Shown piece after piece: positions 1 to 1,895 of a stretch of 64,000 nucleotides of DNA. Numbering within the stretch: the stretch's first letter is position 1; every line of letters starts with the position of its first letter. Source of the DNA: Trypanosoma brucei (lineage: Eukaryota); NCBI GenBank assembly GCA_000002445.1, contig CP000069.1, forward strand, positions 1,280,001 to 1,344,000, in the 5' to 3' direction. The translations under genes were made by a program, and so were the position numbers. The notes below the pieces were generated by a model. That model was not told where the DNA came from. It made no database searches and was given only the letters and a program-made list of their open reading frames with translations.

Positions 1-1895
1 TGGTATCCAGACCAACCCACCAACACGGCTGGTCCCAGTGGTCGCAGCGGGCTGCCCCCCCCCCCCGTGGAAATTAAAAAGCATCGGGGCGGAGGCTCTT
101 GTGGAAACCCTCTAGACAAAGAGGGTTTAAACACCCGAGCACTCCATAAATGGAAATAGCGGGAGGCAACCGAGGGGGTGTTCAGCGTGCAGGGGAAACA
201 CATACTGCAAAAAACTCGAGCGGCTGAATGTCAGTGGGCTTGGACGCCGGCCAAAGCCATCAGCTGCGCTCTACAGAATGGAAGACTGTCGGAGAAGTCG
301 AATGCCAGCACCGTTCGTGGGTTACGCGTGCATTATATGTGGTAGATGGCAACGGTGGTATCCGGGCACTCAGGCAATGTTCCGCCGATCCACTCATCAC
401 ACCACGGAGGGGGAATTTCTAACCCCACAGGAGAGTACGCATGATGATTGCCAATGCAGTGTCAGAAGCCACTGCACTGTCATGGAGAGTGCAAGTGGCT
501 TCCGCTTTGGACTTCCATTGTTCACCATGGCGATGAACTCGCTGAACCGACTACTGGAAGAAGGACCCCAGTTACGTGCCGATTTGTTTACACATAACTG
601 AACGCTGCTGCTTCCTCAAACGAAAGAGAAAAATATCAAACACACACTGCGGAGGTAAGTGGACATGGTGGCACCATGGTCTTGAGAGTACCTAATGGAA
701 GTTTACCTAACGCAGATGAAAAGCACACCCTTCGGTTCTGTGAAATGAATACCGCTCACACCAAACGGTGATGGAGCGTGGGTAGGGCTTGAGAGAACTT
801 TAAAAGTTGCTCTTTGTGATACTCCATTGCATAATTGAAATGGCAAGGCGCGCTATGCAGACAATACGAAAAAAATTGACCTGAGTCTACTTCAAATAGG
901 AGCAATATCTACTTTCACGCAGGGCTAAGCACACCAGCTTCTGCGGTTCTTTTACCTCGCACTGGCGCGAGCGTGTGTCATGTGAAGGGTTGAAGCGTCG
1001 TAATAGGATGTGTGTAAGGGTAGTGGAGGGGAACCCGCTGTTGCACACTGAAAATTTAGCTGTATCATTTCAGGCGTGACATAGCGAATGTACTAAGAGA
1101 GCACCGTCCCTGAAGGTAGCGGCTTACAGCTCAGAAGCGCCACATTAATACGTAGTCCCAAGTCCGTGTTGATGTGAGAAGTGAAAGTCTCAGTGAAGTG
1201 CAATGCCGAGGAAGAGTGTTTCCGAATCTTCATGTCCAAGACCACGAGGAGACACATTACACGATTTCACCAATCCCTTTGTGTCAAGTGGCGTAAGCCC
1301 CCAGTTACTTTCCTCACACTTCGATACCGCAACAGGGCTCTCTTTCGCAATTAAATAAGGCTCATACGCGCGGAAGATCACAAAGATATAAAAATGAAAG
1401 CGAGGGTGGGCAGATTGCACAACGCTTCAGTGGAAACGGTGTACAATTACCGCCTGGTAGATGCCACGGGCCATGGACTGAGGGATCTGCATTATTGGGG
1501 AAAAAAAGAATGGGACAGCTACGACAACATTGGGGGGAAACAAACTGATATTCGTGGAGCGGGCAAATGCAGCCCCATCGCCACGCAGTAACCTAACCGA
1601 ATCCCTGACAATAGAAAAGGGTGCGGGAATGTCACTGGATGTTTTCCAAGCGTATACAACGTCATCGAGAAAACTCCGGATATCGTCGATGGCGTGCTCG
1701 CACGTGTCCGGGACTGAGAAGTCAAAAACGGTGTCCCAGAAAAACGCGACCGGCCCCGACGCTATGAGAAGCCGGAGCTGGAGCAAAGCAGAGTTCCCCA
1801 TGAAAGGAACGCTGCTGACTATTGGCTTCCTCTGAAAATAGGGGGTACTGGACCCTGGCACCACGTTGAGGTGGCCGGCGTCACCCCTGAGCAGA
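1..1895 (-). mobile_element. 5' portion of an ingi/DIRE-family non-LTR retroposon, degenerate, continuing beyond the window start
   Basis: Reverse complement of ~1812-1895 reads GCTCAGGGGTGACGCCGGCCACCTCAACGTGGTGCCAGGGTCCAGTACCCCCTATTTTCAGAGGAAGCCAATAGTCAGCAGCG. This matches the conserved ~77-nt 5' signature (Pr77) shared by ingi/RIME/DIRE/L1Tc, as I remember it. Downstream of it on the minus strand are tiled broken ORF fragments (1930->1427, 1420->1190), as expected for a degenerate ingi ORF. A RIME-length element would end in poly(A) near 1390; no such poly(A) is present there, so a longer ingi/DIRE remnant is more likely. Confidence 0.55.
55..66. repeat. C12 homopolymer (G12 on the minus strand) inside the retroposon remnant
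   Basis: Run of 12 C read directly at 55-66. Confidence 0.9.

Follow-up and report, generated by a model that had tools for sequence, protein, structure and literature searches.

The sequence at positions 509-2500 of the window, which is the 64-kb stretch of T. brucei chromosome 6 that was analysed here, is very probably a composite fossil of the ingi/L1Tc clade (DIRE-type), in which two unrelated fragments face each other and which was later copied between chromosomes 6 and 10. One fragment is the C-terminal half of a decayed reverse transcriptase (RT) on the plus strand (509-1111), and the other is an orphan 5' piece on the minus strand (1672-1889) that starts with the retroposon hallmark Pr77, or 79-bp signature. 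Neither of them is able to encode a protein or to transpose. An earlier note on this DNA was partly right about the family and the context, but the anatomy that it gave was wrong.

The Pr77 site lies between two diverging gene arrays of chromosome 6. In the ORF map all long open reading frames of the window (5578-63696) are found on the plus strand and positions 1-5577 are without any long one. The first gene of the window encodes glutamyl-tRNA synthetase (GluRS), has its ATG at 5659 and gives a protein that is 100% identical to T. b. brucei TREU927 XP_845576.1. We compared the orthologous chromosome 6 loci of T. b. equiperdum (L005, 99.4% identical) and T. b. gambiense (L011, 99.0% identical). 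In both, the GluRS cluster runs in one direction and the HMG-CoA-reductase cluster in the other, with genes of 94, 141, 407 and 802 amino acids and then HMG-CoA reductase. Because these orthologous clusters diverge, the window start must lie inside a divergent strand-switch region. The region measures ~7.3-7.4 kb in total, of which the part upstream of the GluRS start codon (1-5658) belongs to the window and ~1.8 kb lies outside the window start. G12 runs are present in this part at 55-66 (minus strand) and 4818-4829 (plus strand). The earlier suggestion that the Pr77 site delimits the downstream polycistron was confirmed. A tRNA scan found no tRNA. The chromosome 6 centromere was also considered as the identity of the locus and was rejected, as the centromeric repeats are located at Tb927.6.180-190 (PMC1868937).

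The hallmark itself could be identified by several means. A profile made of eight hallmark sequences, published or derived, has its sole significant match in the 64 kb at 1885-1813 on the minus strand (nhmmer, E=3.4e-14), and the 33-nt core that the earlier note had quoted occurs a single time, at 1842-1874 on the minus strand, and in 0 of 100 shuffles. Nucleotides 11-75 of L1Tco align with 1879-1814 (83%, E=5e-12). The hallmark starts at 1889 and occupies 1813-1889. In its DPE core (nt 11-39) it does not differ from the L1Tc Pr77 (oligo R77 of PMC1874656 was used as the reference, and the L1Tco, SIDER and T. vivax ingi sequences were taken from the supplement of PMC4035085). The protein-binding segment of nt 12-33 is unaltered and the DPE motif CGTG is present in register at +25 to +28, within CTCAACGTGGTGCC; this motif at these positions is essential to Pr77 promoter activity (PMC4748587). 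A Pr77 of the ingi/RIME clade had been proposed for the minus strand at ~1812-1895 and is borne out by these matches, and the expected alignment of minus-strand 1800-1900 to the 5' end of ingi, RIME or L1Tc is significant both with L1Tco and with RIME (E=2e-44). A literature search on the bare motif GGTGCCAGGG gave results that are dominated by phiC31 att sites.

The first nucleotides of the hallmark are altered. Nt 1-7 read CAGGGGT instead of the canonical CCCTGGC, with substitutions at nt 2-4. In the HDV-like ribozyme, C1-C3 pair with G35-G37 in helix P1, with a G-C triple (PMC3185411). This helix is formed by nt 1-7, CCCTGGC, and nt 31-37, GCCAGGG, and in the window its pairs 2-36, 3-35 and 4-34 are broken. 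From the loss of three of the seven P1 pairs we infer that self-cleavage by the window copy is unlikely. Rfam gave no match in positions 1-6000 of the window or 1-10000 of the T. b. gambiense locus, a result that is uninformative on the ribozyme because Rfam misses the canonical RIME Pr77 too.

What follows Pr77 on its own strand is short. Nt 5-203 of a canonical RIME, the chromosome 11 copy in L007, correspond to 1885-1688 (BLASTN, 79%, E=2e-44), and the likeness to RIME and ingi fades at about nt 225, near position 1672, short of the 2A-like motif and the endonuclease region. By BLASTN and alignment the orphan piece thus comprises the first ~215-225 nt of RIME/ingi at 79%, and the GGAAGCCAA box, the hallmark and the DPE CGTG all lie within the ~215 nt that align to the canonical RIME.

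In the earlier reading the whole site is a single decayed ingi or DIRE on the minus strand, which has Pr77 as its 5' end at ~1889 and tiled, broken ORF fragments from 1930 to 1190 as its APE/RT region, and whose body leaves the window at its start. Such an element would agree with a real Pr77, with the ~215 nt of ingi/RIME likeness downstream of it on the same strand and with the presence of an ingi-clade RT remnant within 1-1895. However, the minus strand is without any APE or RT signal. Pfam searches of ten minus-strand ORFs and of stop-masked three-frame translations of both strands gave no real domain. By tblastn with pieces of L1Tco, L1Tc and T. vivax ingi, the minus strand has no match beyond Pr77's own ~12 residues, and with clade-specific APE, RT and C-terminal profiles it is empty beyond the ATSTWCQGPV that Pr77 encodes. 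The cited ORFs are also out of the ingi frame. An ORF of 167 amino acids runs through Pr77 (1427-1930, minus strand) and reads it as AGHLNVVPGSS, where ingi-clade ORFs read ATSTWCQGPV, and the ingi frame across Pr77 meets two stops within 40 codons. This ORF has no Pfam domain and only three relatives in the database, all from T. brucei and all 'hypothetical' or 'unlikely' (in T. b. equiperdum the annotation calls it 'hypothetical'); their loci served as our reference sequences. By its frame and its relatives the ORF is most likely spurious. As the searches were empty and the ORF does not share the frame of ingi, the tiled fragments cannot be taken for a decayed ingi ORF. These searches were made with T. 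congolense L1Tco, T. vivax ingi, T. cruzi L1Tc and one RIME copy as references, with which a very decayed or lineage-specific ingi in 1111-1672 or 1889-2500 could escape detection; when the APE region of L1Tco was searched against proteins, all matches were L1Tc proteins of T. cruzi, and a T. brucei ingi was not among them.

The far end of such an element is missing as well. The ingi/RIME likeness ends near 1672 and the repeated block that is described below ends at 538, and so the idea of an element that runs off the window start did not hold. The RIME 3' half (RIME-B) matches neither the window nor the orthologous 20-kb locus of T. b. equiperdum. Minus-strand A-runs or a poly(A) tail were not found, and neither was a repeat of the upstream 10-12-mer that would indicate a target-site duplication. 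In the 1.8 kb past the window start, as given by the orthologous sequence, and in the 20-kb locus, RIME-B half, poly(A) and target-site duplication are all absent.

The coding remnant is located on the opposite strand. When all of the window was searched in six frames, an RT profile made from the RT regions of T. vivax ingi (Tvingi), L1Tco and L1Tc (two to three sequences) matched 509-1018 on the plus strand in a single frame, with iE=1.6e-8, and the best reversed-sequence decoy had E=1.2. In the T. b. equiperdum orthologue the match reaches profile position 508, at about position 1111 of the window (iE=2.7e-9), and in the T. b. gambiense locus and the chromosome 10 copy (L006) the same profile gave iE of ~4e-8. 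The remnant (509-1111, plus strand) is antisense to Pr77, has ~10 in-frame stops and reads GLPLF...LRADLFTHN (YADD box)...APWSxEYLMEV...K...FG, followed by the post-RT region. By tblastn, a piece of the T. vivax ingi RT had a weak match to the plus strand at 635-745 (E=0.05-0.075), with the typical pattern ...W-S-x-E...V...K-T...F-G. The remnant, matched by a profile that was built only from ingi-clade sequences, is probably of the ingi clade rather than of the SLACS/CRE clade or VIPER, and the match continues into a post-RT region that is specific to the ingi-clade references.

No remnant of the RT N-terminal half, APE, RNaseH or zinc finger was found on either strand of the region by profiles, tblastn or Pfam, and the C-terminal (RNaseH/zinc-finger) and APE profiles had no match in any locus. 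The silence of the RT profile elsewhere in the region is meaningful, because in L007 this profile does pick up a separate DIRE RT remnant (iE=1.6e-8). Pfam scans are empty where the clade-specific profile matches, from which it follows that Pfam RVT_1 misses the remnant. Upstream of it, a plus-strand ORF of 107 amino acids (278-598) was submitted to an exhaustive phmmer search of 1.84 billion representatives and matched only itself and one repetitive protein of 2373 amino acids, the latter at residues 25-50. As this search gave no real relatives, 278-508 is not detectably RT.

Thus, a decayed ingi-clade RT does exist within 1-1895, as had been expected, but its strand and its place downstream of Pr77 had been given wrongly; searched for ingi APE and RT, the minus strand yields nothing and the plus strand yields the RT remnant without APE. 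Since Pr77 is on the opposite strand it cannot be the 5' end of the RT remnant. The single-element reading is largely refuted, and we regard it as highly improbable.

The composite fossil is found twice. A 1.97-kb block that holds both relics (538-2500) matches chromosome 10 by BLASTN (94.8% over 1966 bp); the partner, in T. b. gambiense (L006), also lies in a divergent strand-switch region. The block was also recovered when chromosomes 6 and 10 of T. b. gambiense were compared. The two copies that we see were each reached via annotated ORFs. Both ends of the block are abrupt and are without a poly(A) tail, a target-site duplication or terminal repeats. The block extends 611 bp upstream of Pr77, and the mutations of nt 2-4 are common to both copies. 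This extension, the abrupt ends and the shared mutations indicate that an already decayed composite was copied as DNA rather than retrotransposed. One could also propose that the block is not a segmental duplicate but belongs to a non-autonomous mobile family that has not been described, given that its two copies reside on separate chromosomes, each in a divergent strand-switch region, and have the same relative orientation. Yet neither boundary has the marks of transposition listed above, the inside of the block is a mosaic in which two ingi-clade fragments have opposite orientations, its identity profile matches that of conversion tracts and only two copies were seen. We regard a mobile family as highly improbable.

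The identity between the two copies is unevenly distributed. The tract 538-1260, which mostly overlaps the RT remnant, is 99.6% identical between chromosomes 6 and 10, with 3-4 differences (0.4-0.6%), whereas in the remainder of the block (1261-2500) the copies differ at 95-100 sites (8%). Purifying selection on this tract was considered and rejected, because the diversity between the subspecies in 538-1260 is ordinary for the region (p=0.27). For the same reason gene conversion fits better than constraint, and 538-1260 is most likely a recent tract of ectopic gene conversion. Among the three chromosome 6 sequences, the minority allele is the chromosome 10 base at 10 of the 26 variable sites, which suggests that the exchange between the two chromosomes is continuing; in T. 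b. equiperdum this is seen at three adjacent sites (2046-2048).

Other trypanosomes give an indication of the age of the debris. T. melophagium has the same gene order, with HMG-CoA reductase and genes of 385, 141 and 95 amino acids facing GluRS, and its syntenic region between the clusters is only 740 bp long and has no Pr77. No Pr77 was found upstream of GluRS in T. vivax (1156 bp to the contig end) or T. grayi (229 bp). Based on the short T. melophagium region without Pr77, we infer that the debris was probably gained in the T. brucei lineage, with loss elsewhere as the alternative.

Another question that is raised by this arrangement is whether the relic was put to use. The Pr77 relic might start Pol II transcription of the leftward polycistron, and the block might have been copied because it is useful. 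The intact nt 11-39, with the nt 12-33 segment and the CGTG identical to those of the functional L1Tc Pr77, would fit such a promoter. Pr77 also faces the adjacent cluster, with the first called gene 3.7 kb away on chromosome 6 and 2.3-3.0 kb away on chromosome 10, and a role of this kind for Pr77 in strand-switch regions was proposed by the Lopez/Thomas group (PMC4748587). However, 65 of 73 Pr77 positions are identical between chromosomes 6 and 10, which places it among the least conserved parts of a block with 95% identity, and in the chromosome 10 copy GCCAGGG has been changed further, to GCCAAGT. This poor conservation and this damage make it unlikely that the hallmark is under selection. 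In addition, nt 2-4 of the +1 region are altered, the syntenic region of T. melophagium works without a Pr77, only two loci were seen, and the promoter activity of Pr77 is known from T. cruzi and from another sequence. An exapted promoter is therefore an unlikely explanation. A related proposal, in which the block would be an exapted strand-switch module whose Pr77 DPE seeds Pol II antisense through the RT and whose copies are kept alike by recurrent conversion, seems to us less likely still. The window Pr77 is most likely an inert passenger and may at most provide weak, unselected Pol II initiation toward the leftward gene cluster.

A course of events that fits the composite fossil would start with ingi-clade elements that, in the T. 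brucei lineage, inserted into the gene-free region by target-primed reverse transcription and then decayed or became truncated or rearranged. The already decayed 1.97-kb block would then have been copied between the strand-switch regions of chromosomes 6 and 10 by ectopic recombination at the DNA level. Such recombination is preferred to retrotransposition because the start of the block lies 611 bp upstream of Pr77, its ends are blunt and an A-tail is lacking. Gene conversion between the two copies may be ongoing and would have homogenised 538-1260 recently. For annotation, this means that a Pr77 match need not indicate that an element starts there and continues downstream, as here the coding remnant is antisense. 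The strand-switch regions of two chromosomes seem to trade sequence via gene conversion, which has a modest bearing on the evolution of gene-free regions and on the candidate feeding of polycistronic transcription by Pr77. The locus is otherwise of small weight beyond annotation hygiene; the earlier note was right that a polycistron has its edge here and that a retroposon hallmark is present.

In an earlier survey all ingi, RIME and DIRE copies of T. brucei were annotated, and strand-switch regions were shown to have the highest retroposon density in this genome (PMC2323293). Compared with the autonomous ingi (5.2 kb), the locus has no APE, RT or RNaseH after Pr77 on the same strand and no 3' RIME-B half, poly(A) or ~12-bp target-site duplication. 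Pr77 does not head a retroposon body here, since only ~215 nt of ingi-like sequence follow it and the repeated block continues for 611 bp upstream of it. A RIME joins both ~250-bp termini of ingi and carries an A-tail and a target-site duplication; the copy in L007, of 505 bp, starts with CCCTGGCGATGCC and has an A-tail and the 12-bp target-site duplication TTAGAGTTTCCC. Here only nt 5-203 are present, and the parts that would complete a RIME or an ingi, namely the 2A motif, APE, RT, RIME-B, poly(A) and the 12-bp duplication, do not accompany them. The likeness of 79% also stands against a median divergence of RIMEs from their consensus of 4% (PMC2323293).

The Pr77 of the window resembles the T. 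cruzi L1Tc Pr77/L1TcRz in its identical nt 11-39 and its DPE, but in contrast to L1TcRz the 5' strand of P1 has been lost (3/7 pairs). With TbSIDER1 and TbSIDER2 it has the Pr77-type hallmark in common. Unlike these elements, it matches the TbSIDER2 hallmark over 27 nt, leaves the bodies of TbSIDER1 and TcoSIDER1 unmatched, and is not followed by a body of ~560-590 bp with an A-rich 3' end. A true TbSIDER1 is present in the chromosome 10 locus (L006, 8869-8300).

Closer parallels are found among degenerate elements. Like TbDIRE, the RT remnant is a non-coding, stop-riddled remnant of the ingi clade in a strand-switch region, with a GC content (~51%) above the genome background (48.7% in TbDIRE; PMC2323293). 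In contrast to TbDIRE, only ~600 nt of RT are recognisable and A-tail and target-site duplication are lacking. The degenerate ingi/L1Tc coding remnant that defines a DIRE is provided by the C-terminal half of the plus-strand RT, whereas the 79-bp signature, which a DIRE has at its own 5' end, is found antisense and 3' of the RT remnant. Signatures of this kind have been catalogued as well: T. brucei has 51 extra 79-bp signatures, of which 29 precede unique sequence 'not related to retroposons' (PMC2323293; Bringaud et al., 2007), and Pr77 with non-retroelement sequence was also noted in T. brucei in PMC3185411. As with these orphan signatures, the same-strand sequence after Pr77 is not recognisably retroposon-derived past the 5' piece; unlike them, the downstream kilobase is not unique, is common to chromosome 10 and contains an antisense RT. 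By these comparisons of sequence the locus is best classed as DIRE-type debris together with a detached hallmark, and not as an ingi, a RIME or a SIDER. A fossil like this is of an already documented kind, as both degenerate debris and orphan signatures were catalogued nearly twenty years ago.

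Variation within the chromosome 6 copy of the retroposon block was compared with the second copy on chromosome 10. Across 538-2500, the chromosome 6 sequences of three T. brucei subspecies differ at 26 sites, and at 10 of these the minority allele is the base found in the chromosome 10 paralogue; three of the ten are adjacent to each other (2046-2048) and occur in T. b. equiperdum. Based on these minority alleles, short-tract ectopic gene conversion between the two chromosomes looks to be still ongoing.

The chromosome 10 strand-switch region of T. b. gambiense (L006) also contains a TbSIDER1-like element of ~570 bp on the minus strand (8869-8300), which shows 72% identity to TcoSIDER1, has a mutated DPE (CATTGTGG) and carries an A-rich tail. 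It is positioned head-to-head with the Pr77 of the duplicated block, at a spacing of ~1.35 kb. In the chromosome 11 locus (L007), an intact RIME on the plus strand (10438-10942), bounded by a 12-bp target-site duplication (TTAGAGTTTCCC), adjoins a DIRE reverse transcriptase remnant of opposite orientation (9925-8606, minus strand), and both are found in a ~10-kb gene-free gap whose flanking genes are on the same strand.

Rfam 15 gave no match in L007 10300-11000, which holds the canonical RIME/ingi Pr77, nor in window 1-6000. This silence is uninformative on L1Tc-type HDV-like ribozymes, because Rfam 15 appears to hold no model for them.

Divergent strand-switch regions in T. brucei are reportedly enriched in G-runs (Siegel et al. 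2009). In the window, two G12 runs, at 55-66 on the minus strand and 4818-4829 on the plus strand, flank the retroposon block (509-2500) on either side, and further runs of G9 or longer are present elsewhere in the window. Pol II initiation in T. brucei has been linked to GT-rich sequence; (GT/TG)n microsatellites are located within the chromosome 6 strand-switch region at ~2624-2641 and ~4586-4621, and a very long one within that of chromosome 10 (L006 ~8000-8130).

A 5-kb Logan contig (ERR7929163_228; L001) carries an identical glutamyl-tRNA synthetase gene with a divergent gene for an 800-aa TPR-repeat protein ~300 bp upstream, an order that differs from the genomic arrangement; the contig may have been assembled from a transcriptome or be chimeric. 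In the window, a 107-aa plus-strand ORF (278-598) is annotated as 'unlikely' in DAL972. An exhaustive search aligned its residues 25-50 with a 2373-aa protein (P0133) at 17 repeated stretches (E=2.5e-10), probably an artefact of repeats or of composition.

The T. melophagium counterpart of the strand-switch region at the window start, likewise divergent, measures only 740 bp (L009 9260-10001) as against ~7.4 kb in T. brucei (the window and T. b. gambiense chromosome 6, L011), and of this excess length only ~2 kb is recognisable as retroposon-derived.
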